A DNA stretch of 64,000 nt from Chloroflexota bacterium. Its GTDB lineage: Bacteria > Chloroflexota > Anaerolineae > UBA1429. The stretch is taken from NCBI GenBank assembly GCA_034722245.1, contig JAYENT010000026.1, positions 461-64,460 on the forward strand, read 5' to 3'. The position numbers and the translations under genes are program-made. Below, piece after piece: positions 18,481 to 41,655 of the stretch. The notes beneath the pieces were generated by a model. The model worked only from the letters and a program-made list of their open reading frames with translations, had not been told where the DNA came from and ran no database searches. Position 1 is the first letter of the stretch. Each line of letters begins with the position of its first letter.

Positions 18481-18505
18481 GCAGCGCGCTTATCTGGAAG
18501 GCGGA

Positions 18506-20457: not shown

Positions 20458-21471
20458 ATGAGATTGCATGAATTCCTGAAGAGGCGAGCCCGACTCCTGG
20501 TCGGAATCGTGGTCAGTCTGATCTGTTTCTATTTCGCCCTGCGTATTGTGGATCTGGCCAAGGTCTGGGAAACCTATCGTGGGGCCAACTATTGGTATCT
20601 CTTGCCCGCGTTGGGCATGTTGATAGTTATCAGTTGGGCGCGGGCTCGCCGCTGGCGCCTGTTAATGTACCCCAACGATCAGGTGCCTCTGGAGAGGCTT
20701 TTTTCCATCGTCAACATTGGCTATCTTTTTAACAATATACTGCCTGCCAAGGCGGGGGAGCTTGTGCGCGCCTATCTTGCGGGGCGTGTGTTGCCCGGGG
20801 GCGTGCCCCAAACGTTGTCCACACTTCTTGTGGAACGTTTGCTCGACGTGCTCATGGTGGTGGTTCTCCTGGTTGCCCTTTTTCCCTTTGTAACACTCCC
20901 ATTGTGGATCATGAGGGCGGGTCTGTTGTTTGGGGGGATAGCGGTCGGTGGAGCAGTGTTCCTTGTCCTGCTCGCCAGGCTTGGTGATCGCGGACTGGAG
21001 AAGCTCTGGGGGTTCTTGGCGAGGCTTCCCCTGGTTGGTCATCCACGGGTCAAGGAAGCCCTGCGCAACGTGTTGAAAGGACTGCGCGTGCTGAGCGTGG
21101 GCAAGTTTCTGCCCCGTATTATATTATGGTCGCTGTCCATCTGGCTGGGATATGGAATATTCAACTATCTCATCATGGCTGCTTTCAGGATGACGTACCT
21201 GCCCCTGCTTTCCGCGTTCGTTGTGCTCTGCGCTACGGGCTTTAGCATGATGGTCCCCTCCTCCCCCGGAGCCTTCGGTCCCTTTGAGGCCGCCGTAGTC
21301 CTGGCCCTGTCCCTGTATGGCGTGGCAGAGAGCGCCGCTTTCGGCTATGGGTTTGGCCTACACGCCTTCACAAATATCTCCCTTATCGTGCTTGGGCTGT
21401 GGGGCTTGCGTCAGGAGAGTGTTAGCTTCTCTGCGGTTCGAGAAAAGGCGTTGGAGCAAAAGGAGACGTAG
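20458..21471 (+). CDS. Flippase-like domain protein (UPF0104 / LPG-synthase TM-domain family)
   Basis: ANYWYLLPALGMLIVISWARARRWRLLMYP...IVNIGYLFNNILPAKAGELVRAYL matches the lPaR.GE..R hallmark of TIGR00374/PF03706; 8 predicted TM segments. Confidence 0.7.
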   Translation: MRLHEFLKRRARLLVGIVVSLICFYFALRIVDLAKVWETYRGANYWYLLPALGMLIVISWARARRWRLLMYPNDQVPLERLFSIVNIGYLFNNILPAKAGELVRAYLAGRVLPGGVPQTLSTLLVERLLDVLMVVVLLVALFPFVTLPLWIMRAGLLFGGIAVGGAVFLVLLARLGDRGLEKLWGFLARLPLVGHPRVKEALRNVLKGLRVLSVGKFLPRIILWSLSIWLGYGIFNYLIMAAFRMTYLPLLSAFVVLCATGFSMMVPSSPGAFGPFEAAVVLALSLYGVAESAAFGYGFGLHAFTNISLIVLGLWGLRQESVSFSAVREKALEQKET

Positions 21472-23911: not shown

Positions 23912-26900
23912 ATGGCTCCTATGACAGGAGAGGATAAGTTCGTGACGTGGCAAGATGCGTCGCACGCTGTAAAGACAGTGTGGTCTCGACTTGGCAACCT
24001 GTCCTCCGACCGCCGTATGATGCTCAACTTGATGATAGTGATTCTTTTGATTGCAGGCGCGTTGCGTTTTACGGGGATAGATTGGGACGAGAATCAGCAC
24101 CTTCATCCCGACGAGCGCTTCTTGACCATGGTCGAGGACAGATTGCGATGGCCCAGTTCCTTCAAAGAGTATCTGGACTCCTCTGTGAACCCCCTCAGCC
24201 CCTACAATCAGGGTCACGACTACTATACCTATGGTTTGCTCCCCGTGGTTGTGACCAAGTTCATTGGTGAGATCGTGGGCGAGACGGGTTATGATAGCAT
24301 CTATCTCGTGGGGCGGGCGCTGAACGGCGTGCTTGACCTGTTTTCCATCGTGTTGATCTTTATCATGGGCAAGCGTCTCTATGACGCCCGTGTAGGGCTT
24401 TTGGGGGCCTTGTTTCTCGCTTTCAGCGTGCTTAACATTCAGAGCGCTCACTATTTCACCGTAGATACGTGGGTCACCTTTTTTGTAACCTTGGCCCTTT
24501 TCTATGCAATTCGCGTGGCCCAGGGGGAGGGATGGGGGAGTGTTCTAGCCATGGCTGTGGCTTTCGGCCTGGCCACGGCTTCCAAGATCAGCGTTCTCCC
24601 CTTTTTGCTTGTCATGGGTTTGGCCTACACGTTGAGGATCTGGAGACGATGGCAGGCTCACAGAGGTGGGGACTCCTCGCGTTTGATCCATCTGAGAAAG
24701 CAGTGGGGACGGTTTAATATCTTGCTTCGAGTTGAACCGGATGACGAGTGTGAGCCGGTGACGGATGGCGAGCGCCTGTTTTTCGAAATCCTTCGGGGGA
24801 CGCTTTCTTTCTTGGTGGCATTGGTCGTAGCCGCCCTTGTCTTCCGCGTGGCGCAACCTCACGCCTTCACGGGGCCCGGGCTGTTCAATTTCAAGCTCAA
24901 TCCCACATGGAAAGACGACATGAGTCATATCAGCAAGCTGACGAGCGGAGAGATCACTTGGCCCCCTAGTTACCAATGGACGGGCCGGACGCCGGTCCTT
25001 TTCATGCTCAAGAATATGGTATTTTGGGGATTGGGGTTGCCGTTGGGCATCGCGGCATGGGTCAGCTGGGCGTTTATAGGCTGGGAGATGTACAAGAAGG
25101 AGAAGCTGACCCATCTCCTCCCTTGGATGTGGATGACCTTTATCTTCCTCTATCACAGCACCCAGCACGTCAAGACCATGCGTTACCTGCTTCCCATCTA
25201 TCCCACGGCGGCCATGGTGGCCGCCTATGGTCTGATCAAGCTGTGGGATGGGGCCAGGGCATGGAGGGTGCATTATGGTCCGGAGAGGCGTCGGATACGC
25301 TGGGCGGTCGGCGTCCTGATTCTCGTCGTGGTGCTGGGTACGGCCTTTTGGGCCGTCGCCTTTACCAGCATCTATACGCGGCCGGTGACCCGCGTGGCGG
25401 CCTCGCGCTGGATGTACCGCAATCTTCCCCGGGGCGCCTCGGTATCCTATGAGGTGTGGGATGATCCTTTGCCTCTGAATATAGACGGACGTCTGGCGAG
25501 TTCCTACTTTGATCAGGTAAAAATGGATCTCTATGCGGAGGATACACCTGAAAAGCGGGAAAAGCTCTACGACTGGATAGAGAGAGCGGACTATATCGTT
25601 CTTTCGAGCAACCGCCTTTATAAGTCGATTCCTCGTCTTCCCATGCGCTATCCCATGACCACGCGGTACTATGAGGCCCTTTTCTCTGGGGAGCTTGGTT
25701 TTGAGCGTACAGCCACCTTTACCTCACGGCCAAAGCTGTTCGGAATTGAGATCGTCGACGACAATGCGGAGGAGGCCTTTACCGTATACGATCATCCCAA
25801 GGTGATCATCTTTAGGAAGCGCGCCGACTTTTCCATGGTCAGGGTGCGAAGGCTCTTTGAGGAGTATTCCCTTGATCGCATTGTGCGCATGAAACCCACG
25901 CAGGTGACGTCTGCGCCTAATGCTTTGATGCTCAGCGAAGAGGAATGGGCCGTACAACGCGCTGGCGGGACCTGGTCGACGATCTTTTCCCGGAACAGCC
26001 TGTCGAACAAGTTCCCGACGGTAACATGGCTTTTGGCCCTCTTTTATGTGGGATTTGCCGCCTTCCCCTTGGCCTTTGTGGCTTTTTGGCGCATGCGCGA
26101 TCGAGGGTATCTGCTCTCCAAAACCGTGGGCTTGTTAGTTATGAGCTACCTTGCCTGGCTCTTGCCCAGTTTGAAGGTGCTGCCTTATAGCCGAGGGCTC
26201 ATCGCTGGCGTGCTGTTGGGAGTGAGCGCCCTCTCTGCTGTGGTGGGATGGGTGCAAAGGCGCCCTCTACTGGACTTTGTGCGGCGACGCTGGCGTCTCC
26301 TCATAGTCGGTGAACTGCTGTTTCTGGCCTTCTTTTTCCTTTTCTGGCTTATACGCTTTCTCAACCCCGATCTCTGGCATCCGGTCATGGGCGGAGAGAA
26401 GCCCATGGATATGGCCTATCTCAACGCCATCATCAAGAGTACCCACTTTCCACCCTATGATCCCTGGTTCGCCGGCGGCTATATCAACTACTACTACTTT
26501 GGCTGGGTCGTGGCGGCCACGCTGATCAAGCTGACGGCCATCGTCCCCTCGGTGGCCTACAACCTGGCTATTCCCACGTTCTTTGCTCTCATGGCCATGG
26601 GCTCTACGTCCGTTGTCTTTAACCTGATACCCGCCGGAGAGGACGAGGATGGCTGGTTTCCCAGGGCGTTGGGTTATGGGCTCGTGGGCGCTTTGTTGGT
26701 GGCTGTGGCGGGCAACCTGGGCGAATTGCAACTCCTGTGGAATGGCTTCAAGGAACTGGGCAGTAGGGTTTCCTTTGAGAGCACCATTCCCGGGCTTGTG
26801 ACTCTGGTGCAGGTGGTTCGTGGGCTCTGGGCTTGGGTCGCGCAAGGCGAAAGGTTGCCCTTTCGCAGCGAGTGGTGGTATTGGAACGCCAGTCGCATCA

Positions 26901-29900
26901 TGAAGCACGGGGAGATCAACGAATTTCCTTTCTTTAGCTTTTTGTACGCCGACCTGCACGCCCATCTGACGGCCATGCCCTTTGCCATTTGCGCCTTGGC
27001 CCTGGCCAGCAACTTTGTCGTTGAGCCCGTGCGGTGCCTGTTCGGCCCGGCTGACGATGAGGAAGAAGGGGATAAGAGCGAGGGGACGCACGCCGAGGAT
27101 GTAGAGGGAATCCCTGTAGAAACGCGCGCACCTTTCTTGCCGGGCGTGGTACGCTCTGTGCTGCACTTCTTGCAGGGCCTGTCGTCGTGCATCCACTGGC
27201 CTATGATCGCTTCCCTGACCCTGCTCGCGCTGATCCTTGGGGAACTGTGGTGCAACAACTCTTGGGATTTCCCCACCTATGCTGGCGTGTCCGTGGTGGC
27301 CTTGGCCATAGGTTCGTATGCTGAGGCTGACAGGATCAACAAGAAGGTGGTGGCGCACTTCGCTCTTCGCGTCGCCTGCGTGCTGGCACTGAGCATGCTT
27401 TTCTTCCTGCCCTACCACGCCAACTATGGCCTGGCCTATTCCAGCGTGGATCTGTGGAAGGGGGAGCGTACGTCCATCGGCTCTTATCTTATCATTCATG
27501 GGACATTTCTTTTTATACTCGCCTCGTATCTTTTGGTGCTCCTTTTCGACAGGAGGCGCCGGAATGGAATCGTGCGTGCAATACGGCTGTTTCTTCAAGC
27601 CTGGGAGCGGCGAAGGCGTGCGCTGCATCTTTACGACCTCCTCGTGCGTTGCCCAAAGCTGGGCTACGAGCTGGGATGGCTGGGATTGGTTGTCTTGGGG
27701 ATCGTACTGCTTATATTCTTCCTAAAGCAGGCGTGGATCCTGTTGCTGGCGGCGCCTATACTCGCCTTGGCCCTGAGTGTCGTCCTCTTTACCCGAGTGC
27801 GGGCGGAGCGGCGTTTCCAGGCTGCCCTTGTGGGGATCGGACTGCTGTTGACCTTGGCTGTGGAGTATATCGTGCTAAAGGGCGACATTGGCCGTATGAA
27901 CACTGTGTTCAAGTTCTCCTTACAGGTCTGGATCATGTGGGGGGTGGTGGGGGGCGCAGCGTTGGCTTATCTGATCCCCCGCCATTGGGCCTGGCCGTCG
28001 CGCGTGCGTTCCGTATGGCGCAAAATGCTCATCTTTCTTCTCATTGGCGTTTCCCTCTATCCTCTGTGTGGTACCTATGGAAAGGTGAGAGATCGCTGGA
28101 ACCCCGATCTGCCACCGGGATTGGACGGCATGCGCTTTATGACGGGGGCACACTACCGGGATAATAATCGCGATTTGGCTCTGGAATATGATTATCGTGC
28201 CATCCGATGGATGCAGGAGCATATCAAGGGTTCGCCCGTCATCGCCGAGGCCAACACCCCCCTTTACCGCTGGGGGAGCCGCGTGTCCGTCTATACGGGG
28301 CTGCCGACCATCGTGGGTTGGGACTGGCATCAGAAGCAGCAGCGCGCTGCGGTCGGTAGTCAGGTGGTGGACTGGCGACTGGAGGATTTGCGGCTGCTCT
28401 ACAATACGCCCGATCCCGTGATGGCCGCTAACATTCTTGAGTGCTACCAGGTGGGCTACATCTATGTAGGCGAATTGGAGAAGGCCTATTACGACACGCA
28501 AGGTCTGGCCAAGTTCGGACGCATGGTTGGGTCCACGTTGGAGGTCGCTTATAGGCAGGGACCGGTGACCATCTATCGCGTCAAGGGATCGGGCGCTGGA
28601 TTGGTATCCTCAGATCCTGGAGGAGAAAGTCTCTGGAACACCGCGAAACGCTGGTTTGCCAAGCGCTGGTTGCCGGGTGTGGTGAGGGCCGAGGAGCCCC
28701 AGAAGCGTCCTCTTGGCGGGCTGCAGGCGATGGTGGGAGAGCCCTCGCTGATGTTGGACAAACCCGTTGATCAGTTGCCGGTGGTCGATGATCGAGGCTG
28801 GAATGGTCTGGCTGCGAACAGGACGATCTTTGCCCTGTTCTCGTGGTGGGTCGTGTTGCAGCTCCTTGGTTTGATCGCTCTCCCCCTGGTGGGGTATGCC
28901 TTTTCCCCTCTGCCGGACGGGGGGTATTATCTGAGCAAAGGGATCGGGCTGTTGCTCGTCAGCTATCTTGTGTGGCTTGGAACCAGCCTGCACGTGGTTG
29001 CCAACCGCCCTCATGTGGCCTGGGCCGCTTTGCTGTCGGCGGGAGGATGCTCTTTTTTTCTGTGGTGGCGCCACCGCCGTCGTCTGCGCAGGGCGTGGCG
29101 CCGACAACGGAGATTGATTCTGGTGGAGGAGGGCCTATTTAGCATCGCTTTTCTGCTCTTCGTCGGCCTGCGTCTCCTCAATCCGGATCTTTGGCAGCCC
29201 TGGTTCGGCGGGGAAAAGATGATGGAGATAGCTTTCCTAAACGCCATCTGTAAATCCGCCCACATGCCGCCGTATGATCCCTATTTCGCTGACGGGTACA
29301 TCAACTACTACTATTATGGGCAATTCATCGTCGCCACGTTGATCAAGCTCACGGGGGTGTTTCCTCGGGTGGCTTTCAATCTGGCCGTGCCCACCTTCTT
29401 TGGGCTGACCGTCTCCCATGTCTTTGGCGTCTCCTATGGTCTCGTAGCTTTGGGTGAGGAAGGGGTGGAAGAGACTGGAAGAGCAGAAGACGACGCTGGA
29501 ACTGCTGGCATTGCTCCTCGTGCCAGTCCCATCTCCTCCAGGGGGCTGTGGGCAGGGATAGGGGCAGTGGTGCTGGTGGCCGTCATGGGCAACCTCTCTG
29601 GCATACTCCAGGTGCTGGAGTGGCTTGCGAGGGCGGGCGGGGCCTCCTTTCCGGAGGGTCACGTCGCCTGGGCGGATATCCCGTACATTATTCCGGGGCT
29701 GGTGCACACGATACGTCAGGGGATCCCATTGCATTTCGAATACTGGTACTATGGCACGCGCATCATCCCCCACACCATCAACGAGTTTCCCTTTTTTACC
29801 TTTCTCTTTGCCGATCTGCATCCTCATCTGATGGGCATTCCCTTCACTATACTTGTCGTGGGGCTGGCTGCCTCTTTGCTGTGGAGCAAAAGGCGTCCTT

Positions 29901-31360
29901 TAGGGCGCTCTGTCGTGGGCGGGATTCTGACCATCATCGCTCTGGGCGCTCTGGGAGTGATCAATACGTGGGATCTGCCCGCCTATGCGGCGCTTCTGGG
30001 GTGTGTATTGCTCTATTGTGGCTATATATACGGAGGATGGCGAGGAGCGTTGGCCGGCGGGGGCGCTTTCTCGGTCCTTTTTTTGCTTTCTTTGATCGCC
30101 TACGGGCCCTTCTACACCCACTATCGGGCCCAGTATGTGGGCTTGGGGATCGTCTCTCCGGGTGAGCGCACGCGCCTGGGGCCGTTTATGCTTATTTGGG
30201 GCTTTTACGTTTTTTTAACCATCTCTATGGCCTTTTTTTGGACGGGGCGGGCCTGGCCGTGGTCCCGTCTTGCCGCCTTGGTGCAAAGGCATGGACTGGC
30301 CCGCGTCATGCATCACCTTTGGACTTTACGAAGGGCAGGGACCGTGGCCTGGAGCATCTATTCTCTGTCGGTTGCGGCGTTGATGGCCGTGGGCATCTTT
30401 CTTGTCCTATCCGAGGTATGGCTATGGGCACTGCTTGTTCCCCTCGCAGGGTTAACGGGGCTGGCCGTCCTCTGCAGTGGGATGGATCGAGCCGCCTTTT
30501 TTCGGCGCCTGATGGCACTTGGGGCTTTTTGCATCCTCTGGTTGGTGGAAGTCTTTTACATGAAGGATTTCCTGGCCAGCTCCGAGTGGCGACGTATGAA
30601 TACCATCTTCAAGTTCTACATCCAGGCCTGGGTGTTGCTCGGTTTGGCTGTGGGCGGCACTTTGCCCATACTATGGGATAGGCTGAGGGGACACCTGGGC
30701 GCTGTGTGGAAGGGCGCCTTTCTCTTGGGGCTGTTCGCGTCTCTAGTGTACACGGCGTTGGCGATTCCCGCGCGGGTGACGCAGCGGTTTCTCGACGCCC
30801 AGCCGCCGACGGGCACCCTCGATGGCACGTCCTACATGAAGACGGCGGTCTACTCCTGGCCGGATGAGGAAGACGAGATCCACCTCAAGTACGACCGTCA
30901 GGCCATCGCCTGGCTCTGGGAGAATGTGCGGGGTACGCCAGTGCTCGCCGAGGCGCCGCTGGGATATTATCGAGAAGGGGGGCTGCGAGTCTGTTCCTAC
31001 ACCGGCTTGCCAATGATCATCGGCGCCCATGAGAATGAGCAGCGCCCCTGGGAGCAGTTGGGCTCGCGCCAGGAAGATGCGGAGGCCATTTTTCGAAGCA
31101 CGGATGTCGAGAGGGTGCAGGATCTCCTGGACAAGTATCGCGTGCGCTACATTTACGTGGGGCAACTGGAGCGCAACGCCTATGATGCGGCGGGGTTGGC
31201 CAAATTCGATGTCCTGGTAGATCAAGGGGCCATCACGCGCGTGTTCCACAACGCGGGAGTCGATATTTACAGAGTCGTGGAGGACAGGCTGTCTAAGAGA
31301 ACCGGGGCCCCATATTCGGAGATAGTTGTAAGGAGTTTTGGTCTGTGCTGCAGGTCCTGA
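23912..31360 (+). CDS. Giant (2482 aa) integral membrane protein: N-terminal GT-C-like module plus two tandem Chlor_Arch_YYY (DUF2298/TIGR03662) modules
   Basis: Single uninterrupted ORF; N-terminus HLHPDERFLTMVED...YEVWDDPLPLNIDGRL paralogous to the 18506 gene; two copies of PDLW(H/Q)P(V/W)(M/F)GGEK(P/M)M(D/E)(M/I)A(Y/F)LNAI(I/C)KS(T/A)H(F/M)PPYDP(W/Y)FA(G/D)GYINYYY(F/Y)G with YYYxG motif; each followed by conserved periplasmic tail GLP(T/M)I(V/I)G...YIYVG(E/Q)LE. Confidence 0.75.
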   Translation: MAPMTGEDKFVTWQDASHAVKTVWSRLGNLSSDRRMMLNLMIVILLIAGALRFTGIDWDENQHLHPDERFLTMVEDRLRWPSSFKEYLDSSVNPLSPYNQGHDYYTYGLLPVVVTKFIGEIVGETGYDSIYLVGRALNGVLDLFSIVLIFIMGKRLYDARVGLLGALFLAFSVLNIQSAHYFTVDTWVTFFVTLALFYAIRVAQGEGWGSVLAMAVAFGLATASKISVLPFLLVMGLAYTLRIWRRWQAHRGGDSSRLIHLRKQWGRFNILLRVEPDDECEPVTDGERLFFEILRGTLSFLVALVVAALVFRVAQPHAFTGPGLFNFKLNPTWKDDMSHISKLTSGEITWPPSYQWTGRTPVLFMLKNMVFWGLGLPLGIAAWVSWAFIGWEMYKKEKLTHLLPWMWMTFIFLYHSTQHVKTMRYLLPIYPTAAMVAAYGLIKLWDGARAWRVHYGPERRRIRWAVGVLILVVVLGTAFWAVAFTSIYTRPVTRVAASRWMYRNLPRGASVSYEVWDDPLPLNIDGRLASSYFDQVKMDLYAEDTPEKREKLYDWIERADYIVLSSNRLYKSIPRLPMRYPMTTRYYEALFSGELGFERTATFTSRPKLFGIEIVDDNAEEAFTVYDHPKVIIFRKRADFSMVRVRRLFEEYSLDRIVRMKPTQVTSAPNALMLSEEEWAVQRAGGTWSTIFSRNSLSNKFPTVTWLLALFYVGFAAFPLAFVAFWRMRDRGYLLSKTVGLLVMSYLAWLLPSLKVLPYSRGLIAGVLLGVSALSAVVGWVQRRPLLDFVRRRWRLLIVGELLFLAFFFLFWLIRFLNPDLWHPVMGGEKPMDMAYLNAIIKSTHFPPYDPWFAGGYINYYYFGWVVAATLIKLTAIVPSVAYNLAIPTFFALMAMGSTSVVFNLIPAGEDEDGWFPRALGYGLVGALLVAVAGNLGELQLLWNGFKELGSRVSFESTIPGLVTLVQVVRGLWAWVAQGERLPFRSEWWYWNASRIMKHGEINEFPFFSFLYADLHAHLTAMPFAICALALASNFVVEPVRCLFGPADDEEEGDKSEGTHAEDVEGIPVETRAPFLPGVVRSVLHFLQGLSSCIHWPMIASLTLLALILGELWCNNSWDFPTYAGVSVVALAIGSYAEADRINKKVVAHFALRVACVLALSMLFFLPYHANYGLAYSSVDLWKGERTSIGSYLIIHGTFLFILASYLLVLLFDRRRRNGIVRAIRLFLQAWERRRRALHLYDLLVRCPKLGYELGWLGLVVLGIVLLIFFLKQAWILLLAAPILALALSVVLFTRVRAERRFQAALVGIGLLLTLAVEYIVLKGDIGRMNTVFKFSLQVWIMWGVVGGAALAYLIPRHWAWPSRVRSVWRKMLIFLLIGVSLYPLCGTYGKVRDRWNPDLPPGLDGMRFMTGAHYRDNNRDLALEYDYRAIRWMQEHIKGSPVIAEANTPLYRWGSRVSVYTGLPTIVGWDWHQKQQRAAVGSQVVDWRLEDLRLLYNTPDPVMAANILECYQVGYIYVGELEKAYYDTQGLAKFGRMVGSTLEVAYRQGPVTIYRVKGSGAGLVSSDPGGESLWNTAKRWFAKRWLPGVVRAEEPQKRPLGGLQAMVGEPSLMLDKPVDQLPVVDDRGWNGLAANRTIFALFSWWVVLQLLGLIALPLVGYAFSPLPDGGYYLSKGIGLLLVSYLVWLGTSLHVVANRPHVAWAALLSAGGCSFFLWWRHRRRLRRAWRRQRRLILVEEGLFSIAFLLFVGLRLLNPDLWQPWFGGEKMMEIAFLNAICKSAHMPPYDPYFADGYINYYYYGQFIVATLIKLTGVFPRVAFNLAVPTFFGLTVSHVFGVSYGLVALGEEGVEETGRAEDDAGTAGIAPRASPISSRGLWAGIGAVVLVAVMGNLSGILQVLEWLARAGGASFPEGHVAWADIPYIIPGLVHTIRQGIPLHFEYWYYGTRIIPHTINEFPFFTFLFADLHPHLMGIPFTILVVGLAASLLWSKRRPLGRSVVGGILTIIALGALGVINTWDLPAYAALLGCVLLYCGYIYGGWRGALAGGGAFSVLFLLSLIAYGPFYTHYRAQYVGLGIVSPGERTRLGPFMLIWGFYVFLTISMAFFWTGRAWPWSRLAALVQRHGLARVMHHLWTLRRAGTVAWSIYSLSVAALMAVGIFLVLSEVWLWALLVPLAGLTGLAVLCSGMDRAAFFRRLMALGAFCILWLVEVFYMKDFLASSEWRRMNTIFKFYIQAWVLLGLAVGGTLPILWDRLRGHLGAVWKGAFLLGLFASLVYTALAIPARVTQRFLDAQPPTGTLDGTSYMKTAVYSWPDEEDEIHLKYDRQAIAWLWENVRGTPVLAEAPLGYYREGGLRVCSYTGLPMIIGAHENEQRPWEQLGSRQEDAEAIFRSTDVERVQDLLDKYRVRYIYVGQLERNAYDAAGLAKFDVLVDQGAITRVFHNAGVDIYRVVEDRLSKRTGAPYSEIVVRSFGLCCRS

Positions 31361-33747
31361 TCTGGTGGCTCGTCCTTCAAGTGATAGGCTTGCTCGCTTT
31401 GCCCATCACGTTGCGACTCCTGCGCTTCCTGCCCGACCACGGATTCGGGTTCTCCCGTCAAGTGGGACTGATCCTGTCGGCGTTTGCTTTCTGGCTGTTG
31501 GTGACTTTGGGGATCCTGCAAAATACCACGTCGTGCATCGTGTTTGTGTTGCTGCTTATGGGGGGCTTTTCCGCCTATCTGTGGTCGAAAGATGGGGAAT
31601 GGATGTTGGCCGCTCTGGGGGAGCGAAAGCGCGTTCTCCTCATCACAGAATGTGTCTTTATTGTGGGACTGGCCGGCTTTGCTTTGTTTCGCGCCTATAA
31701 CCCTGACATTGCAGGCACGGAAAAGCCCATGGAGTTCGCTTTCATAAATGGCATTCTGCGCAGCCGCACCTTTCCCCCGAACGACCCCTGGCTGTCAGGC
31801 TATGCCATCAGTTATTATTACTTTGGTTACGTCATGACGGCCATGCTGACCAAGCTCTCGGGAGTGCCCAGCGAGATCGCCTTCAACTTTATGGGCAGTA
31901 CCCTGTTTGCCCTCACCCTGAGCGGATCCTTCAGCCTCGTGTACAACATGGCACAGGCACACCTTGATCGACAGGACGGCGGCGTAACGAAGAACACCTC
32001 TTCCGTATCGGGAACTGCCGTGGGTGCCGGTTTTTTAGGGGTAGTCCTTGTGGCACTGATGGGCAATCTGGAGGGCGTCTTTGAGCTGCTGCGCGCCCAT
32101 GGTGCGGGGTCGGAGGCTCTGTGGCAGTGGTTGGACATAAAGAATCTACACGCCACGGCGCAGAGTGCCACGTGGTATCCCGACGATACCTGGTGGTGGT
32201 GGCGCGCATCCCGCGTCATCCATGACGTGGATGCGGCCGGCCGCTCCATGGAGGTTATCGACGAGTTTCCCTTTTTCAGCTTTCTTTTGGGGGACAACCA
32301 TCCCCACGTGCTCGCGTTGCCCTTTGTGTTGCTGGCGCTGGCGTTGGCCCTCAACCTCGTGCTGAATGGGTCGCGACAGGGTAAGGCACGATCCGATGCG
32401 GAGGAGGAGAGGGGCCTCTGGGAACGAGTTGTCGCCTTCTTTTTAAATCTCTGGCCCGGCGACACCCTGGAGTTCGTGCTCTATTCTATGATCGTAGGGG
32501 GCCTGGGCTTCCTCAATACCTGGGACTATCCGATCTATCTGGGGATTCTGGTTCTGGTCTATGCCATGCGCCATCAGGCAGAAGTGGAATTTGGCCAACA
32601 GTGGCTGTTGGACGTGCTTGCCGTCTTTGGGGCGCTGCTCTTCACGGGCATCCTTTCCTATCTCCCCTTTTACATAAGCTTTCGCTCTCAGGCCGGAGGC
32701 ATCGGCTGGGTGGGGGCGATCAAGACCCGTCTTCACCAATACCTGATCATGATGGGCGTCTTTGTTTCCATACAGATCGGTTTTCTGCTCTCCCTTGTAA
32801 CCCATCGGCGGAGGAAGGGTGTGGTTGAGGGGCCGCCCTCGTTGGCGAAATGGGTTGCCGGTCTGATGGCGCTCTTTGTGCTGTTTTGTCTGTTTCAGCG
32901 GTGGTGGACGGGCGCTTTCATATGGGCTATCGTGGCCCCCGCGGCTGCCCTCTGGCTGTGGGGCAGTCGGGACGGGTGGGGCGAACCCCTTTCGCCCACT
33001 ATGTCCTTTGCGCTCCTGTTGGTCGCGGTGGGTTTCGCGCTGACCGGAAGCGTGGAGTTCATCTTTCTGCGGGATACGTTCGGTACGCGCATGAACACCA
33101 TCTTCAAATTCTATTACCAGGCTTGGGTGCTGCTCGCTGTTTCCTCTGCCTATGGCCTGTTCCACGTGCTACACCGGTGGGAGCGATTGCGCTCCATGCT
33201 GGGGCGGGTTGCCACGGGAGCATGGTTGGCCGTATCGGGGGTGCTTGTACTGGCTGGGCTGAGCTACACGGTGGCCGCCATATCCAGTAAGGCCGGCGGT
33301 TTTCGGGGCCAGCCAACGCTCGATGGCACGCGCTATGTGCGCCAGTATCGGGAAGCAGACTATGAGGCCATCCAGTGGCTAAAAGCTAATGCTCCGGCAG
33401 GGAGCGTGCTACTGGAAGCCCCAGGAGGCTCCTATTCGGAGTACAACTGGGTCTCCGCGCATACGGGGATACCCACCGTGCTGGGGTGGGGCGGACACGA
33501 ACTGCAGTGGCGAGGAAACTATGATGAGGCCGGGCGGCGAGAGCCGGATATCGCCGCTATCTACCAGAGTCTCGACAAGGCGCAGAAGCGGCAGCTACTT
33601 GAGAAATACGACGTGGATTTCGTATACGTTGGCCCGCTGGAGAGAGAAAAGTACGGCCTGAACCTGGCCATGATCGGTGCTTTTGACGGTTTCATGCAGC
33701 GCTGTTACGAGGGGAAGGGCGTCATCATCTACTGCTGGTCGCCCTGA
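31345..33747 (+). CDS. Chlor_Arch_YYY (DUF2298) membrane protein, single-module form
   Basis: GTG start with AAGGAG SD, overlaps giant-gene stop by 16 nt; PDIAGTEKPMEFAFINGILRSRTFPPNDPWLSGYAISYYYFG; C-terminal tail GIPTVLGWGGHELQWRG...VDFVYVGPLEREKYG is homologous to the two tails in the giant protein. Confidence 0.7.
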   Translation: MLQVLIWWLVLQVIGLLALPITLRLLRFLPDHGFGFSRQVGLILSAFAFWLLVTLGILQNTTSCIVFVLLLMGGFSAYLWSKDGEWMLAALGERKRVLLITECVFIVGLAGFALFRAYNPDIAGTEKPMEFAFINGILRSRTFPPNDPWLSGYAISYYYFGYVMTAMLTKLSGVPSEIAFNFMGSTLFALTLSGSFSLVYNMAQAHLDRQDGGVTKNTSSVSGTAVGAGFLGVVLVALMGNLEGVFELLRAHGAGSEALWQWLDIKNLHATAQSATWYPDDTWWWWRASRVIHDVDAAGRSMEVIDEFPFFSFLLGDNHPHVLALPFVLLALALALNLVLNGSRQGKARSDAEEERGLWERVVAFFLNLWPGDTLEFVLYSMIVGGLGFLNTWDYPIYLGILVLVYAMRHQAEVEFGQQWLLDVLAVFGALLFTGILSYLPFYISFRSQAGGIGWVGAIKTRLHQYLIMMGVFVSIQIGFLLSLVTHRRRKGVVEGPPSLAKWVAGLMALFVLFCLFQRWWTGAFIWAIVAPAAALWLWGSRDGWGEPLSPTMSFALLLVAVGFALTGSVEFIFLRDTFGTRMNTIFKFYYQAWVLLAVSSAYGLFHVLHRWERLRSMLGRVATGAWLAVSGVLVLAGLSYTVAAISSKAGGFRGQPTLDGTRYVRQYREADYEAIQWLKANAPAGSVLLEAPGGSYSEYNWVSAHTGIPTVLGWGGHELQWRGNYDEAGRREPDIAAIYQSLDKAQKRQLLEKYDVDFVYVGPLEREKYGLNLAMIGAFDGFMQRCYEGKGVIIYCWSP

Positions 33748-35657: not shown

Positions 35658-35678
35658 ACTGAAGGAGAGAGCACGCGA

Positions 35679-38600
35679 ATGAGCGAGAAAAAAGAGATCG
35701 CTTTTCTGGACAGGCCCATTATAGGAGACAGGATCGCGTGGTGGAAGGTGATATATGCCCTTCTCATACTTTTTGTCGTGTTTACCCGTTTGTGGGCCCT
35801 GGCCCCCCGTGGTTACAGCCACGATGAGAGCATTCATGCCTGGGAATCCTGGAAGCTGATTACAGGACAGGGATACAGTCATGATCCCACCTATCATGGC
35901 CCCTTTCTCTATCATTTCACGGCTTTTATTTTCGGCCTATTTGGGCACAATGACTATACGGCGCGCCTGAGTCCTGCGCTCTTTGGCATTGCGCTGGCCG
36001 TTCTGCCACTCCTGCTGAAAAAGTGGTTGGGCAAAAAGGGCGTCCCGGCAGCGACTTTTTTGATAGCCATCTCGCCCGTGATGATGCATCGCTCCCGTTT
36101 TCTGCGCCATGACGTATACGTCGCCGTCTTCAATTTGTTGCTGTTCATCAGCTCGCTTCGCTATCTGGATCAACGCAAGACCAAGGACCTTTATTTGGTG
36201 GCCGCGGCGACCTCTTTGGGTTTCTGCGCCAAGGAGACCACCTTTATCACCTATTTCATCTTTGGCACTTTTTGGGCCCTTCTTTTTCTTTCCCAATGGC
36301 TGCGCGAGCGCACGCGCCCCTGGCGCGAACTGCCCGTTTTCGACCTGATTATCGTCATGGGCACCCTCATTTTGCCTTTGGCCTCTCCTTTTCTCATCAG
36401 GGTGCTGGGAGGCGACCCGCTGGACTATACACAGCAGGGCATCCTTTTCTCTGGAGCCATATTCCTGGTGGTCTTGGGCATCTCTGCGGCCATCGGCTTC
36501 TGGTGGGACTGGCGCCGCTGGCTGGTGTGTGCGGGGATATTCTATGGCATCTTTGTGCCACTATTCACTACGATGTTTACTAACGGGCGGGGCTTTGCCA
36601 CGGGGACGGTGGGCCAGTTGGGATATTGGCTCTCCCAGCAGGGCGTGAGACGTGGCGATCAACCGCCCTACTACTACTTGGTACTGATGCCCATGTACGA
36701 GTTTCTTCCCCTGCTCGGGGCTATCGGCGGGGGTATATACTTTTTCTCTAAAAGGTCTCAGGACGAGGAAGCGGTAGAGGATGCTCCCACGGGAATTCCC
36801 TTCGTACCCATGCTCCTCTATTGGAGCGTGTTGGCCTTTGTGATCTATAGCTGGGCCGGGGAAAAGATGCCGTGGTTGACCATGCACCTGGCCCTCCCTC
36901 TCCAGCTCTTGGCCGGCTGGGCTATCGGTCGCCTGTTTGATGCGGATTGGGGCGAACTGCGTGAGAAAGGCGCGCTGTGGCTTCTTTTGCTTATTCCCCT
37001 TTTCATCTATGTGATACTACGACTTCTTAATCTCAATCCCTCGGCGGGCACGACAAGACAGGAGTTAAGCGAGACCATGGCCTGGTTGACCTCCCTGCTC
37101 GTCGGTCTGGGGCTCGTGGTTGCCATCTCGCGGATTCTTTACAGACTGAGTGGGGGGCAGCGATGGCGGATCGGTTTGGTGTCCCTTTTCATCATTCTCA
37201 GTATGCTGACGGTGCGCTTCGCTTGGATGGCATCCTTTGTCAACGCCGATCTGCCTACCGAGTTTCTGGTCTATGCTCAGGGCACGCCCGACGTGGCGCT
37301 GGTGGCGAAGGAGATCGAAGAGATGTCGCGCCGGCTGACCGGGGGCTTGCACATGAAGGTGGCCTACGATGATGACTCCAGTTGGCCCTTTGTCTGGTAT
37401 CTGCGCAAGTTCGACAATGCCCAGTTTTATGGTCAAGAGCCGGCAGGCCCTTTTGATGCCGAGGTAGTTCTCGTCGGGCCGCCTAACGAATCAGCGGTCA
37501 AGCCCCTGTTGGGCAACGATTACTATCGGCGGCAGTATCGGCTCATATGGTGGCCCAACCAGGATTGGTACATGAGTCCGGAATTGAAGAGCATTCGGCA
37601 GGGGATGAAGGAGAAGAGGATTGCGGGCAAGCTGTCGGATCTCTTATTATATTTGAAGACGATGCTGAAAAAGATTTGGCGGGTGGTCAGAGACAAGTCG
37701 GCGCGTCAGAATCTCTGGGATGTCTTCTTTTATCGCGAATACGAAGCCTCTTTGACCTCCTGGCCCCACGTGCACAAGTTCGCCTTGTACGTGCGGCGAG
37801 ACGTGGCGCAGCAGTTGTGGGACTATGGGCCCGAGGTGCTCACGGCGGCGGAGCCTCTGCCCGGGGACGAATACGTGGAGAAATGGGAGCAGATCATGGC
37901 GACCGACGCCTTTGGTTCGTCGGGCAGTGGGCCGGGGCAATTGAATAGGCCAAAGGGCATTGGCGTGGACGAGGACGGGAATGTCTATGTGGCGGATACC
38001 CACAATCATCGTATTCAAGTATTCGACGGGGATGGCCAATTCTTGCGCCAGTGGGGGGCGGAAGGCAATCAGTCTGGTCAGTTCAAGGAGCCGTGGGGTG
38101 TGACGGTGGGCCCCGAGGGGGACATCTACATCGCCGACACATGGAATCATCGCATACAGGTGTTTGATGTTCGGGGACAGCTCAAGCGAGTCTGGGGAAC
38201 CTTTGGTGAGGTAAAAGATCCCATGGGCTCTGGCGATCTTTTGTATGGTCCTCGTGATCTCGTCGTCGATGCAGAGGGGAATCTCTACGTCACCGATACG
38301 GGAAACAAGCGCGTGATCAAGTATGATGCCGAGGGCAATATGATCAAGGCCGTCGGAGGCGCCGGGAGTGAAGAGGGGCAGATGCAGGAGCCGGTGGGAC
38401 TTGCCTTGTCCCCGGAAGGCGATCTGTACGTGGCCGATACCTGGAATCAGCGCATTCAGGTCTTTGATAAAGACTTGGATTTCCTGCGCAGTTGGCCAGT
38501 ATACGCCTGGGAGGGCATGTCGGTGCTCAACAAGCCCTACTTGGCAGTGGATGCTGAGGGTAATGTCTATGCCACTGATCCGGAGGGCTATCGCGTGCTC

Positions 38601-38759
38601 GCCTTCGACAGCCAGGGTGAGCTCTTGCGTGTGTGGGGCCAGAAGGGCGGGGCTCTCTCTTCCATGAACCTACCCACGGGTGTTGCTGTGGACCCGTCGG
38701 GCCGCCTGTTGATCAGCGACTCGGAGAACGGTCGCCTGCTGGTCTTTGAGGAGCACTGA
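35679..38759 (+). CDS. Fusion protein: N-terminal GT-C-like polytopic membrane domain (about 730 aa) plus C-terminal six-bladed NHL-repeat beta-propeller
   Basis: N-terminus ...YSHDESIHAWESWKLITGQGYSHDPTYHGPFLYHFTAFIF... with many TM segments; C-terminus has six repeats such as NVYVADTHNHRIQVFD, DIYIADTWNHRIQVFD, NLYVTDTGNKRVIKYD, DLYVADTWNQRIQVFD, NVYATDPEGYRVLAFD, RLLISDSENGRLLVFE (NHL consensus). Confidence 0.7.
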   Translation: MSEKKEIAFLDRPIIGDRIAWWKVIYALLILFVVFTRLWALAPRGYSHDESIHAWESWKLITGQGYSHDPTYHGPFLYHFTAFIFGLFGHNDYTARLSPALFGIALAVLPLLLKKWLGKKGVPAATFLIAISPVMMHRSRFLRHDVYVAVFNLLLFISSLRYLDQRKTKDLYLVAAATSLGFCAKETTFITYFIFGTFWALLFLSQWLRERTRPWRELPVFDLIIVMGTLILPLASPFLIRVLGGDPLDYTQQGILFSGAIFLVVLGISAAIGFWWDWRRWLVCAGIFYGIFVPLFTTMFTNGRGFATGTVGQLGYWLSQQGVRRGDQPPYYYLVLMPMYEFLPLLGAIGGGIYFFSKRSQDEEAVEDAPTGIPFVPMLLYWSVLAFVIYSWAGEKMPWLTMHLALPLQLLAGWAIGRLFDADWGELREKGALWLLLLIPLFIYVILRLLNLNPSAGTTRQELSETMAWLTSLLVGLGLVVAISRILYRLSGGQRWRIGLVSLFIILSMLTVRFAWMASFVNADLPTEFLVYAQGTPDVALVAKEIEEMSRRLTGGLHMKVAYDDDSSWPFVWYLRKFDNAQFYGQEPAGPFDAEVVLVGPPNESAVKPLLGNDYYRRQYRLIWWPNQDWYMSPELKSIRQGMKEKRIAGKLSDLLLYLKTMLKKIWRVVRDKSARQNLWDVFFYREYEASLTSWPHVHKFALYVRRDVAQQLWDYGPEVLTAAEPLPGDEYVEKWEQIMATDAFGSSGSGPGQLNRPKGIGVDEDGNVYVADTHNHRIQVFDGDGQFLRQWGAEGNQSGQFKEPWGVTVGPEGDIYIADTWNHRIQVFDVRGQLKRVWGTFGEVKDPMGSGDLLYGPRDLVVDAEGNLYVTDTGNKRVIKYDAEGNMIKAVGGAGSEEGQMQEPVGLALSPEGDLYVADTWNQRIQVFDKDLDFLRSWPVYAWEGMSVLNKPYLAVDAEGNVYATDPEGYRVLAFDSQGELLRVWGQKGGALSSMNLPTGVAVDPSGRLLISDSENGRLLVFEEH

Positions 38760-38772
38760 CGGGGAAGAAGCC

Positions 38773-39426
38773 ATGATGCTGAACGTCGACGTGTTTCTCT
38801 TCGATTTCGATGGCACCCTGATCGAGCCCACTATCGATTTTGATTTGATGCACCGGAAGGTGCTCAAGATAGTGCGCGATTTTGGTGTGGCAGATCGTTC
38901 GCTGAGGCAGTTGCATACCCTGGAGACCGTAGAGACGGTCGAGGCGCGGTTGCGGGACGACCATGGTGCGCGCGAAGAATTTCTGAAACGGGTACATGCT
39001 TCTATCCTCGATCTGGAACTGGAGGCAGCGGAACATGCCCATGCCTATCCGGGCGTCCCCGAGATGCTGGACGAACTGGCCACCAGGGGATTTGGGGTAG
39101 GCATCGTGACGCGCAACTCTCGTGCTGCCGTGATGCGCATCCTGCGGCGATTCCCGCTCCACTATGACGTGCTCCTCACCCGGGATGACGTGGCCCATGT
39201 CAAGCCGGACCCTCGTCACCTATTGAGGGCTTTGGAACACTTTTCTGAGGGGCGACGGCGCGCCGCCATGTGCGGGGACCATCCCATGGATGTGGTCGTG
39301 GGCAAGCGTATCGGCGCCCTGACAGTGGGCGTTCTACAGCCCGGCATGTCGGAGGAGCGCTTTGCAGGAGTGGACCCCGATCTCGTGGTCTCGCACCCGC
39401 CAGAGTTGTTGGAGTATGTGGGTTGA
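38773..39426 (+). CDS. HAD-superfamily hydrolase (phosphatase)
   Basis: DVFLFDFDGTLIEP motif I (DxDG); GVGIVTRNSR...; K...GDHPMDVVVGKRIG motifs III/IV; ATG 38773 is 14 nt after the upstream stop. Confidence 0.75.
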   Translation: MMLNVDVFLFDFDGTLIEPTIDFDLMHRKVLKIVRDFGVADRSLRQLHTLETVETVEARLRDDHGAREEFLKRVHASILDLELEAAEHAHAYPGVPEMLDELATRGFGVGIVTRNSRAAVMRILRRFPLHYDVLLTRDDVAHVKPDPRHLLRALEHFSEGRRRAAMCGDHPMDVVVGKRIGALTVGVLQPGMSEERFAGVDPDLVVSHPPELLEYVG

Positions 39427-39581
39427 TTGGAACTGCCAGCCTGCCGTCGGAAATATCCTGACGGAGCCTTTACAAAGAGTCATAGTAGAGGGGGCCACGG
39501 AATGAGCGGCAGCGATCAACGTGCGGGCATCGGCTGCTCGATTGGAATAGGGATCAAAAGTACGGTAGGTCAGGGGGATCC

Positions 39582-40211
39582 TTGTCATCCATATCGCAAG
39601 AGGGAGAGGCTTCGGGTAGGGTAACCAATCCACACCCCGATCGCGTGGAGGTGGTTTCAACCGAACGCGCCTTCGACGGTTTTTTCAGGATCGACCGTGT
39701 GCGGTTCCGCCACGCTAGGTACGACGGCGGCATGAGTGACGAGATTACCCGTTTGGTCTTTGAGCGGGGCGATTCCGTCGCCGTGCTGCCCTACAACCGC
39801 AAGCGAAGTGAAGTTGTTCTCGTCAAGCAGTTTCGCTATCCCGCGCACGTACGGGGCGGTCCGGGCTGGCTGTGGGAGATCATCGCTGGCGTGCAGGAGG
39901 AGGGGCTGGCCCCGAAAGAGGTGGCGCGCAAGGAAGCCCTAGAGGAGGCGGGATACCAACTTGGCGATCTGGAAAAGATAATGACCGTCTATCCCAGTCC
40001 TGGGGCTTGCTCCGAACGCATACACATCTATCTGGCGCCCTTTGAGCAAACAGATCGTGTGGCGGAGGGCGGCGGCATTGAATCGGAGGATATCCTTGTG
40101 CGCACCTTCTCATTGGATGAGGCGCGCCGCATGATGGAGGACGGCGATATTGTGGATGCCAAGACGACGCTTGCTCTGCAATACTTGATCCTCCATTGGG
40201 ATGACGAGTAA
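39582..40211 (+). CDS. nudF: ADP-ribose/ADP-sugar pyrophosphatase (NudF-like Nudix hydrolase)
   Basis: FDGFFRIDRVRFRHARYDGGMSDEITRLVFERGDSVAVLPYN...EIIAGVQEEGLAPKEVARKEALEEAGY aligns along its length with E. coli ADP-ribose pyrophosphatase including the Nudix box; exact start uncertain. Confidence 0.75.
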   Translation: MSSISQEGEASGRVTNPHPDRVEVVSTERAFDGFFRIDRVRFRHARYDGGMSDEITRLVFERGDSVAVLPYNRKRSEVVLVKQFRYPAHVRGGPGWLWEIIAGVQEEGLAPKEVARKEALEEAGYQLGDLEKIMTVYPSPGACSERIHIYLAPFEQTDRVAEGGGIESEDILVRTFSLDEARRMMEDGDIVDAKTTLALQYLILHWDDE

Positions 40212-40275
40212 TGCAGGTTGATGCTGTCTTTGTGGGAGGGCTTGCTGTATCCGCATCAGGCCGTGATAGATTGAG

Positions 40276-41655
40276 GTGGTGGTGCGCAAAGCGCTTTTGA
40301 AACGTTGGCTTGATCAAGTACCTTTTTGGGATGCCACGGTCGGCATATTATCCGCTGCTGCACTGCGGACCTATGTGGTAGGTGGCTCCGTGCGCGATGC
40401 GCTTTTGGAGCGTCCTGGCCATGATGTCGACATCGCGGTGGCAGGGGAGGCGATGGCCCTGGCTCGGCGCGTCGCCGATGCTCTTGGCGGAGCGTACGTG
40501 CCCCTGGATGCTGAGCACGATGTGGCCCGCGTGGTGATTTTTGCGAGAGGCGATCAGTATCATCTGGACTTTGCGGGGCTTCGCGCGGAGGATATAGAGG
40601 GCGATCTTTGGGCGCGGGACTATACCATCAACGCCATGGCCGTGGCCGTCGATGATGGTCTGGGGGAATTCTACGATCCCACGGGAGGCGAAAGCGATCT
40701 GGCCTCCGGCCTGCTTCGGATTACCCAGGACAGAGCCTTTGCGGATGACCCCGTGCGTATACTGCGGGGTTTGCGACTGCGGGGCATTTTGGGGTTCTCC
40801 TTGACCCCAGAGACGGAGAGACTCGCCCGGCATTGGCTCTTTGCCCTGGCGAGAGTCTCTGCAGAGCGTATCCGAGACGAGGTCTTGCAGATTCTAGATC
40901 TCCCTTGCGCTGTACCTTCTTTGCGCTATGGAGCAGAGTTGGGTCTGTTTCGCGTCGTGCTGCCGGAGCTTGGACCGTATCTGGAGCGCGCGCTGGAAAC
41001 CTTGGCTGCTCTGGAACGATCCTTTTCCGGAGAAGAGGAGAATGATGATGTGGGGCACTTTAGACCATTTTGCAACGACTTGAGGAGCCACTGGGCGGAG
41101 AAACTGGCCGGGGGGCGCAGCCGCTGGACGGTCCTGAAACTGGCTGCGATGCTGAGCATCATCCCCGAGGCCGAGGATGTGGGGGCACGCGTTGCAAAGG
41201 GCCTGAGGCTGAGCACCAAAGAGGTGCATTTTGTTGGGAACGTGATCAGGGGCAGTCTTTGTGGGGATGTCTGGAAGCCAAGAGGTCGAGTGGATGCACT
41301 GACGGCGCACCGCTTCTTCCGTGAATTGGGGGCGGCCGGCGTCGACGCGGCCGTTACGGCTGCTGCTGGTCGCCTCGCCGCCGATGGCGTGCACGCGAGG
41401 GATCTGTCCCTTGAAGAGACCATTGCCAGGGGGAGGGGATTGCTGGATGCCTGGTTCAAAAGGCGTGCCGAGATTGTGGAGCCCCAGCCTCTGCTTTCTG
41501 GGCACGACGTAATTCGTATTTTGGATGTGGATCCAGGGCCCATTGTGGGGCGTGCCTTGAGACGATTGACCGAGGCCCAGGTCGAGGGGCGCGTGGAAAC
41601 AAAAGCAGAGGGTGTGGCGTATCTTCGTCAAGTCTTCGGGGCGGAGAGTGCGTAA
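40276..41655 (+). CDS. cca: CCA-adding enzyme / poly(A) polymerase-family tRNA nucleotidyltransferase (class II)
   Basis: YVVGGSVRDALLERPGHDVDIAV head-domain motif (GGxVRD...DxD), RDYTINAMAV, and ILRGLRL flag motif. Confidence 0.75.
   Translation: MVVRKALLKRWLDQVPFWDATVGILSAAALRTYVVGGSVRDALLERPGHDVDIAVAGEAMALARRVADALGGAYVPLDAEHDVARVVIFARGDQYHLDFAGLRAEDIEGDLWARDYTINAMAVAVDDGLGEFYDPTGGESDLASGLLRITQDRAFADDPVRILRGLRLRGILGFSLTPETERLARHWLFALARVSAERIRDEVLQILDLPCAVPSLRYGAELGLFRVVLPELGPYLERALETLAALERSFSGEEENDDVGHFRPFCNDLRSHWAEKLAGGRSRWTVLKLAAMLSIIPEAEDVGARVAKGLRLSTKEVHFVGNVIRGSLCGDVWKPRGRVDALTAHRFFRELGAAGVDAAVTAAAGRLAADGVHARDLSLEETIARGRGLLDAWFKRRAEIVEPQPLLSGHDVIRILDVDPGPIVGRALRRLTEAQVEGRVETKAEGVAYLRQVFGAESA

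Follow-up and report, generated by a model that had tools for sequence, protein, structure and literature searches.

We analysed a 64,000-nt window of the Chloroflexota bacterium contig JAYENT010000026.1, and all coordinates are positions in this window unless another locus is named. The gene of interest, at 35679-38759, encodes a fusion protein with three parts, i.e., a membrane domain (residues 1-522), a soluble alpha/beta domain (526-715) and an NHL beta-propeller (746-1026). The gene and its parts are as follows:

35662..35670, forward strand: Shine-Dalgarno-like GAAGGAGAG, from direct sequence reading
35679..38759, forward strand: gene for a protein with a TIGR03663/Agl23-family domain of the glycosyltransferase C (GT-C) type, a middle domain and an NHL propeller; single ATG open reading frame (ORF), 1026 aa plus stop
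35679..37244, forward strand: polytopic membrane domain, GT-C fold, residues 1-522; 15 hydrophobic segments, 13 helices by DSSP
35802..35954, forward strand: predicted first extracytoplasmic loop, residues 42-92; side from positive-inside count; invariant R44, H48-D49-E50, H53 and H73-G74-P75
35823-35828, forward strand: candidate catalytic acidic pair D49/E50; invariant columns in orthologue alignments
37254..37823, forward strand: soluble alpha/beta middle domain, residues 526-715, from the secondary structure of both models; predicted extracytoplasmic
37824..37913, forward strand: linker, residues 716-745; low confidence (predicted local distance difference test, pLDDT, 47-64 in the N-terminal model)
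37914..38756, forward strand: six-bladed NHL beta-propeller, residues 746-1026; Pfam NHL, PDB profile matches, Foldseek

The 3' end of GAAGGAGAG lies approx. 9 nt before the ATG of the fusion gene, which makes it a good ribosome-binding site, and 21 nt separate the stop of the preceding gene from the fusion-gene start. A protein with 100% identity to the window protein is deposited in NCBI as MEA3407041.1, 'TIGR03663 family protein [Chloroflexota bacterium]'. We conclude that 35679-38759 is a real, intact gene, with a signal far above chance.

All 120 best matches among 5.8 billion clustered proteins carry NHL-family domains and are mostly about 1000 aa long; PMT_2 was also found in all of them except five N-terminally truncated proteins, and the named matches are called TIGR03663 or Agl23. 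In a scan with one genome for each species, there were at least 593 relatives, and the related loci examined here are the best 80 of these (context counts refer to 78 loci). Nearly all of the 80 aligned over almost the full query length, and all but one were labelled Chloroflexota, mostly Anaerolineales, Anaerolineaceae and Caldilineaceae, along with Thermoflexus; metagenome-assembled genomes placed in Anaerolinea, Levilinea, Leptolinea, Flexilinea and Thermoflexus are represented, as is Anaerolineaceae bacterium BD1. Membrane part and NHL domain stand in one ORF in the 74 loci with long alignments of both parts. Moreover, a HMMER search with residues 1-745 over 1.84 billion 50%-identity representatives returned 4874 relatives (939 at E ≤ 1e-30); among the best 150 representatives, 102 have the full NHL domain and approx. 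8 more are cut inside it (approx. 110 in total with NHL), and approx. 25-30 end cleanly after the middle domain and are genuine NHL-less forms. The single locus labelled otherwise (JBLMXX010000378.1) holds a full-length orthologue on a 5.4-kb contig binned as Acidobacteriota, with a TIGR03663-like paralogue and a DUF2298 gene upstream; its label may reflect a binning error or a transfer.

The distribution also bears on whether the fusion could be an artefact of this metagenome-assembled genome, i.e., a TIGR03663 gene and an adjacent NHL gene joined by a frameshift or a lost stop. TIGR03663 proteins without NHL do occur elsewhere, and no other support for such an origin was found; the same single ORF recurs in 74 independently assembled genomes, every one of the 120 best matches has the NHL-family domain, and about 110 of the 150 cluster representatives carry the fusion. 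As the fusion is conserved across genomes, we rule out an assembly artefact, the chance of which is practically nil. The propeller is a discrete addition to a core of membrane and middle domains, as shown by the clean C-terminal ends of the NHL-less relatives behind the middle domain, and it has become fixed across a large lineage. These data show that the fusion is real and under selection. Its presence in hundreds of Anaerolineae genomes makes it a common feature of the lineage and no rarity. An earlier reading of the window made by a model from the letters and translations (hereafter the sequence-only reading) had called for a survey of how widespread the fusion is; given the identical deposited protein, the species genomes and the cluster representatives counted above, the rarity was overstated, and the fusion is widespread in Anaerolineae (Chloroflexota).

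Two AlphaFold2 models were built, one of the full-length protein from 59 homologues (pLDDT 87.4, predicted template modelling score, pTM, 0.79) and one of residues 1-745 (pLDDT 85.2, pTM 0.87). The full-length prediction, which the sequence-only reading had recommended, yielded the membrane domain, the middle domain and a six-bladed propeller. That reading had described the first approx. 730 aa as one domain with multiple membrane spans; its membrane part is confined to residues 1-522, which are followed by the soluble domain and the linker, and its boundaries were off because the 190-aa middle domain was missed and two domains were merged. Mapping with domain hidden Markov models (HMMs) showed that the middle domain is also kept in the NHL-less relatives, which have their C-terminal ends at middle-domain profile positions of approx. 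137-169. Residues E528, Y532, A533, P570, W573, Y574 and R576 of the middle domain are invariant among 25 distant orthologues, and this domain probably corresponds to the periplasmic domain found in ArnT. Compared to the family consensus, the middle domain of the window protein has an apparent insertion of approx. 29 aa at approx. 37578-37690 (residues approx. 634-671), which is helical and K/R-rich (MKEKRIAGKLSDLLLYLKTMLKKIWRVV...) and has lower model confidence (pLDDT 63-83).

The C-terminal propeller was identified by several lines of evidence. Six blade motifs can be read by eye in the translation (ADTHNHRIQVFD, ADTWNHRIQVFD, TDTGNKRVIKYD, ADTWNQRIQVFD, TDPEGYRVLAFD and SDSENGRLLVFE), and Pfam NHL (PF01436) matched with an E-value of 1.9e-53 (176 bits, 5 scored repeats). 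In the AlphaFold model, 24 strands between residues 743 and 1023 form six four-stranded blades with a pLDDT of approx. 95, and the modelled strand 743-745 appears to close the last blade. A family profile run against the PDB matched solved NHL domains at 1e-75 to 1e-60, its matches including Thin, TRIM71, TRIM2/3 and Brat as well as, at a weaker E-value, the extracellular part of PknD from M. tuberculosis, and Foldseek placed the model on the TRIM71 and Thin NHL domains with target TM-scores of 0.89-0.92. Among 74 orthologues, mean identity to the window protein is higher for the NHL domain (47.7%) than for residues 1-745 (36.4%). The sequence-only reading had taken the last approx. 290 aa to be six NHL repeats and had named the Pfam search as a check; the Pfam match, the modelled blades and the Foldseek scores all bear this out.

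The membrane domain belongs to TIGR03663 (NCBIfam 'flippase activity-associated protein Agl23'), with a score of 288.8 bits against a cut-off of 126.25. Residues 26-579 cover profile positions 4-431 of 435, i.e., the whole profile; as the profile stops at residue 579, the TIGR03663 model does not include the NHL propeller. Pfam PMT_2 matched residues 73-211 with 43.1 bits (gathering score 26.1). Fold comparison showed that the membrane core can be superposed on solved GT-C enzymes, with ArnT and the protein O-mannosyltransferases (PMTs) being closest by structure. Thus the kinship of the N-terminal part with GT-C and TIGR03663 proteins, as the sequence-only reading had it, is supported by both profiles. 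Its further statement that this part is related to the gene product encoded just upstream also stands (29% identity over the first 193 aa, E 3e-14), and its labelling requires correction, in that the fusion protein is the bona fide TIGR03663 member and the neighbour scores 101.4 bits, i.e., below the cut-off. In many family members (P0183, P0193, P0224, P0207 and other representatives), the membrane domain contains very large insertions, such that it spans up to approx. 1300 aa as compared to 525, in proteins of 1400-2000 aa.

Conservation was assessed in two sets, i.e., 59 closer homologues and 25 more distant orthologues with 33-51% identity. The TIGR03663 family is characterized by an invariant N-terminal DE dipeptide, an HGP tripeptide and two arginines. 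Both sets show D49-E50, H73-G74-P75, R44, R96 and R140 to be invariant. Among the 25 orthologues, the invariant positions of the N-terminal part are R44, H48, D49, E50, H53, P70, H73-G74-P75, A82, G89, D92 and R96, followed by G121, S132-P133, R140, R143, E186, 13 more positions from G305 to E341, and W382, G394-E395-K396-M397-P398-W399-L400, H403 and P407. The loop after the first transmembrane helix (residues 42-92) contains two helices and the invariant D49/E50, and hhalign aligned the DE of a PMT_2 paralogue with the D49/E50 region. A DE motif in loop 1 is known in PMTs; by analogy, we infer that D49/E50 is a candidate acidic catalytic pair.

Hydropathy averaged over the 59 homologues revealed 15 hydrophobic segments. 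DSSP, applied to the model, draws residues 92-130 and 252-297 each as one long helix and thus counts 13; ArnT has 13 membrane helices. Under the 15-segment scheme, positive-inside counts averaged over the 59 homologues gave 23.0 K+R per 79 residues for the inner loops as compared to 9.05 per 133 residues for the outer loops. For the last six helices, the inner loops (357-372, 421-431 and 488-496) have 4.5, 2.8 and 2.5 K+R, and the outer loops (393-398, 452-462 and 522-536) have 1.0, 0.9 and 0.03. This clean alternation indicates that the chain passes to the outer side behind residue 521; beyond residue 522, hydrophobic segments are absent. Invariant columns among the 25 orthologues lie mostly in predicted outer loops, helix ends and the middle domain, and none lies in inner loops; the conserved residues of the predicted outer face include H48-D49-E50, which directly follows the first helix, along with H73-G74-P75, R96, R140/R143, the 302-333 loop and G394-E395-K396-M397-P398-W399. 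These results strongly predict a cytoplasmic N-terminus and conserved residues on the outer membrane face, and the invariant pattern of this predicted face is that expected of a GT-C active site. The C-terminal domains of the matched GT-C structures are outside. Overall, the middle domain and the propeller are predicted to be extracytoplasmic from the positive-inside rule, from the conserved residues of the outer face and from homology to GT-C proteins, in agreement with the sequence-only reading, which had placed the NHL domain outside; neither a cytoplasmic NHL domain nor an N-terminal part lacking GT-C or TIGR03663 kinship was found when both were checked.

The fusion gene is the last of a same-strand row of large membrane-protein genes. 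The neighbouring genes considered here are as follows:

15549-16514, reverse strand: UbiA-family protein; 'decaprenyl-phosphate phosphoribosyltransferase' equivalog model, 275.9 bits (cut-off 234)
18392-20380, forward strand: PMT_2-type GT-C-like protein, from Pfam/NCBIfam and hhalign
20458-21471, forward strand: flippase-like LPG_synthase_TM protein, from Pfam/NCBIfam; lies between the two PMT_2 genes
21610-23622, forward strand: PMT_2-type GT-C-like protein without PA14 and NHL, from Pfam/NCBIfam and hhalign
23912..31360, forward strand: giant 2482-aa membrane protein with two or three DUF2298/chlor_Arch_YYY domains; TIGR03662, 1026 bits in 3 stretches
31345..33747, forward strand: DUF2298/chlor_Arch_YYY (TIGR03662) membrane protein; 562 bits
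33843..35657, forward strand: upstream TIGR03663-like paralogue, 604 aa, without NHL; 101.4 bits, below cut-off
38746..39426, forward strand: HAD-family phosphatase, probable start ATG 38773, from Pfam/NCBIfam

The TIGR03662 (DUF2298) family is a typical companion of TIGR03663. In 28 of the 78 related loci, a DUF2298 gene is found upstream of the orthologue, and in 32 the paralogue is its direct upstream neighbour; the order giant DUF2298, DUF2298, paralogue and fusion gene is repeated in many of them. Giant DUF2298 homologues are found upstream of the orthologue in many loci, and some of their N-terminal parts resemble the PMT_2 protein at 18392-20380. As hhalign against a single sequence found no relationship between DUF2298 and the TIGR03663 core (probability 0.15), we do not claim the DUF2298 proteins as GT-C proteins. 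In the paralogue family (20 loci), H48, D49, H53 and the histidine of HGP (H73) are lost, and E50, P75 and R96 are kept. Heteromeric GT-C pairs offer an analogy, and the 604-aa paralogue may be a partner without catalytic activity.

Downstream of the fusion gene, 38746-41655 contains genes for the HAD phosphatase, an ADP-ribose-type NUDIX hydrolase and a CCA-adding enzyme. The HAD gene is likely co-transcribed with the fusion gene, as its probable start lies 14 nt after the fusion stop; it is also downstream in the closest relatives L001, L002 and L007, and these, together with L004, another of the closest relatives, share the HAD/NUDIX/CCA order. Housekeeping neighbours (e.g., in L004, L007, L075, L033 and L034) include sucC/sucD downstream and genes for a pseudouridine synthase, ScpB, a sigma factor and an NAD-dependent epimerase upstream. 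This setting in many loci suggests a core gene rather than part of a variable glycan island. The UbiA gene is located 2 kb from the row of GT-C genes and provides a weak lead towards a polyprenyl-phospho-pentofuranose donor. We therefore considered a three-component pentofuranose system and retained it as a weak lead at most; a UbiA homologue is present within 10 kb in only 3 of 80 related loci, and in these 3 loci genes for pyruvate:ferredoxin oxidoreductase, an integrase and an aldehyde oxidoreductase lie between UbiA and the fusion gene.

Members of a single gene cluster (median approx. 1015 aa) are found downstream of the orthologue in 11 related loci; four of them were scanned and found to consist of a PMT_2 core followed by PA14 and an NHL propeller (approx. 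1230-1470 aa). These PMT_2-PA14-NHL genes, all downstream of the orthologue, are located as follows (locus and position in that locus):

L022:16204-19956
L006:14086-17799
L027:15345-19745
L056:13399-17097

One PMT_2-PA14-NHL protein has an N-terminal double zinc ribbon. A common origin of the two types of NHL domains is not supported, as they are 26-37% identical, i.e., no closer to each other than to the NHL domain of animal TRIM71 (34%). The link between NHL domains and GT-C enzymes recurs in Anaerolineae, which favors the function proposed below.

Given the established family, fold, predicted sidedness, conservation pattern and selection of the fusion, we propose a function in which catalysis, donor type and propeller role are conditional and to which we give an about even chance of being correct. 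The protein would be a GT-C enzyme of the outer face, with a polyprenyl-phosphate sugar as donor and D49/E50 as acidic pair, and its middle domain and propeller would bind the acceptor or an envelope component. The polyprenyl-phosphate-linked sugar would be bound at the outer leaflet, as in other GT-C enzymes, and would be moved onto the acceptor with D49/E50 acting as the catalytic acidic pair. From the last helix, the chain would run outward into the 190-aa alpha/beta domain and then into the rigid six-bladed propeller, which would serve as a permanently attached extracytoplasmic binding module holding or selecting the acceptor, i.e., an envelope protein or glycan; alternatively, the propeller may anchor the enzyme to the envelope. 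Its role would be like that of the MIR domain of PMTs, of the TPR array of TMTCs and of the C-terminal carbohydrate-binding module (CBM) of GT136, EmbC and AftD. The enzyme probably works together with the paralogue, which lacks the DE pair, and with the DUF2298 proteins encoded just upstream. That acceptor recognition is built into the enzyme, as the sequence-only reading had suggested, is only something that we infer.

A number of observations weigh against this proposal. Sequence methods do not detect solved GT-C structures, i.e., phmmer with the membrane part matched no solved structure at E ≤ 10, and the 25-sequence family profile gave one spurious match (E 0.22) and no GT-C chain; the GT-C link hence rests on the fold and the PMT_2 profile. 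It is ambiguous how many spans the N-terminal half contributes (13 or 15, odd in either case). Approx. half of the related loci have the fusion gene among housekeeping genes, which give no clue to a pathway; clustering of the flanking ORFs of the related loci yielded no acceptor candidate (only the paralogue, DUF2298, PMT_2-PA14-NHL and housekeeping genes), and no gene for a polyprenyl-phosphate glycosyltransferase (GT2) was found next to the fusion gene. Moreover, according to PMC11182771, the only studied TIGR03663 member, Haloarcula hispanica Agl23, is a putative dolichyl-phosphate-hexose flippase, and it suppresses yeast rft1-delta and, when purified, supports translocation of M5GN2-PP-Dol in proteoliposomes. 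Together with the name of the NCBIfam model that the window protein passes, these data favor an Agl23-like translocation factor, in which the membrane domain would move or present polyprenyl-phosphate-linked sugars or lipid-linked oligosaccharides without transferring the sugar, the middle domain and the propeller would dock partners (e.g., DUF2298 and PMT_2 proteins encoded in the cluster) or a growing polymer, and the neighbouring large GT-C-like membrane proteins could be the actual transferases. We consider such a role, the main rival reading, rather unlikely. The fold is that of GT-C transferases, and the strictly conserved polar residues, including the DE after the first transmembrane helix, are on the predicted outer face, the site of GT-C catalysis; the cluster already contains a separate flippase-like LPG_synthase_TM protein (20458-21471); and scrambling of liposome lipids could be a side effect of a lipid-binding GT-C protein. 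The flippase role of Agl23 is itself termed putative where it is cited in PMC11182771. As a ligand-binding domain that is permanently external is easier to explain in an enzyme acting on an external acceptor, the fusion bears on the question of whether the TIGR03663/Agl23 family consists of flippases or transferases.

We also considered that the propeller could itself be catalytic and could act on what the GT-C domain uses or makes, by modification or trimming, in the manner of the six-bladed propellers of peptidyl-alpha-hydroxyglycine lyase (PAL), SMP-30/gluconolactonase, strictosidine synthase and virginiamycin B lyase. Propeller conservation is unusually high, secondary Pfam matches include SGL (E 3.1e-18), Vgb_lyase, SSL_N and Phytase-like, and the PDB profile search matched the PAL domain of peptidylglycine amidating monooxygenase at 7e-22. 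However, non-catalytic binding domains (Thin, TRIM71, TRIM2/3 and PknD) match best by far, and the enzyme-propeller families score far weaker than NHL or fall under their curated cut-offs (e.g., Vgb_lyase with 23.9 against 50 and ScyF with 211.9 against 350). The invariant positions of the propeller represent the canonical structural D-T-x-N-x-R NHL motif in each blade, and no metal-binding or catalytic constellation was identified in it. A bifunctional enzyme thus appears improbable.

A full-text literature search found no paper on a combination of GT-C domain and NHL propeller, which agrees with the statement in the sequence-only reading that no characterised GT-C enzyme has one. The design is undescribed, yet widespread, and the protein is deposited and annotated at family level. 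Among the known accessory domains of GT-C enzymes, PMTs have MIR, TMTCs have TPR, and EmbC and AftD have CBMs. Compared to PMT1/2/4 (GT39) and TMTC1-4, which have a beta-trefoil or TPR accessory fold, the window protein has an NHL propeller; the MIR domain of PMTs is placed in a loop, whereas the propeller is C-terminal and follows the middle domain, and the window data contain no pointer to a protein acceptor. With respect to membership in CAZy GT39/GT83, PMT_2 scores 43.1 bits against 26.1, yet no solved GT-C chain is matched at E ≤ 10. ArnT (GT83; PDB 5f15/5ezm; undecaprenyl-phosphate-L-Ara4N:lipid A transferase) is only 17% identical and was undetected by sequence search; it lacks a propeller and acts on lipid A as acceptor.

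PknD of M. tuberculosis (PDB 1rwi/1rwl) is likewise a bacterial membrane protein with an extracellular six-bladed NHL propeller, and its sensor domain was matched with a profile E-value of 2.2e-26 and a Foldseek target TM-score of 0.79. In PknD, however, the propeller is carried by a single-pass Ser/Thr kinase and not by a polytopic GT-C domain; we know of no ligand for it. EmbC/AftD and GT136 ORF12 share with the window protein a GT-C core followed by a beta-rich extracytoplasmic domain, whereas their accessory domains are CBMs rather than NHL; the decaprenyl-phosphate phosphoribosyltransferase-like UbiA gene near the window cluster is a further point of likeness, with weak linkage. The periplasmic C-terminal CBM of GT136 ORF12 (Citrobacter youngae) is described as involved in substrate binding (PMC11127046). 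Likeness to Agl23 of Haloarcula hispanica (Lu et al. 2020 Mol Microbiol 114:762, as cited in PMC11182771) is through the profile of the shared NCBIfam family; DE, HGP and the arginines conserved in TIGR03663 are all found in the window protein, and a TIGR03662/DUF2298 gene adjoins. Conversely, Agl23 is archaeal, uses dolichol and is described as a putative flippase.

A broader hypothesis, which we regard as speculative and doubt more than we believe, is that Anaerolineae possess a lineage-wide, essentially core extracytoplasmic glycosylation machinery, in which two unrelated GT-C families (TIGR03663-NHL and PMT_2-PA14-NHL) would each have recruited a propeller reading the same class of envelope acceptor, along with pseudo-enzyme paralogues lacking DE and giant DUF2298 proteins. 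If true, this machinery would correspond, in these bacteria, to the PMT/TMTC protein O-glycosylation of eukaryotes or to arabinan assembly in mycobacteria, and the propeller would be its acceptor reader. The practical value of the finding is limited for now, with the protein already deposited and annotated at family level. Acceptor recognition is among the less understood sides of GT-C enzymes, for which the known solutions are non-cytoplasmic MIR, TPR and CBM domains. Covalently joined to a GT-C core, an NHL propeller would be a new kind of reader module, and it would point to an unstudied, probably core glycosylation step in the poorly understood cell envelope of Chloroflexota.

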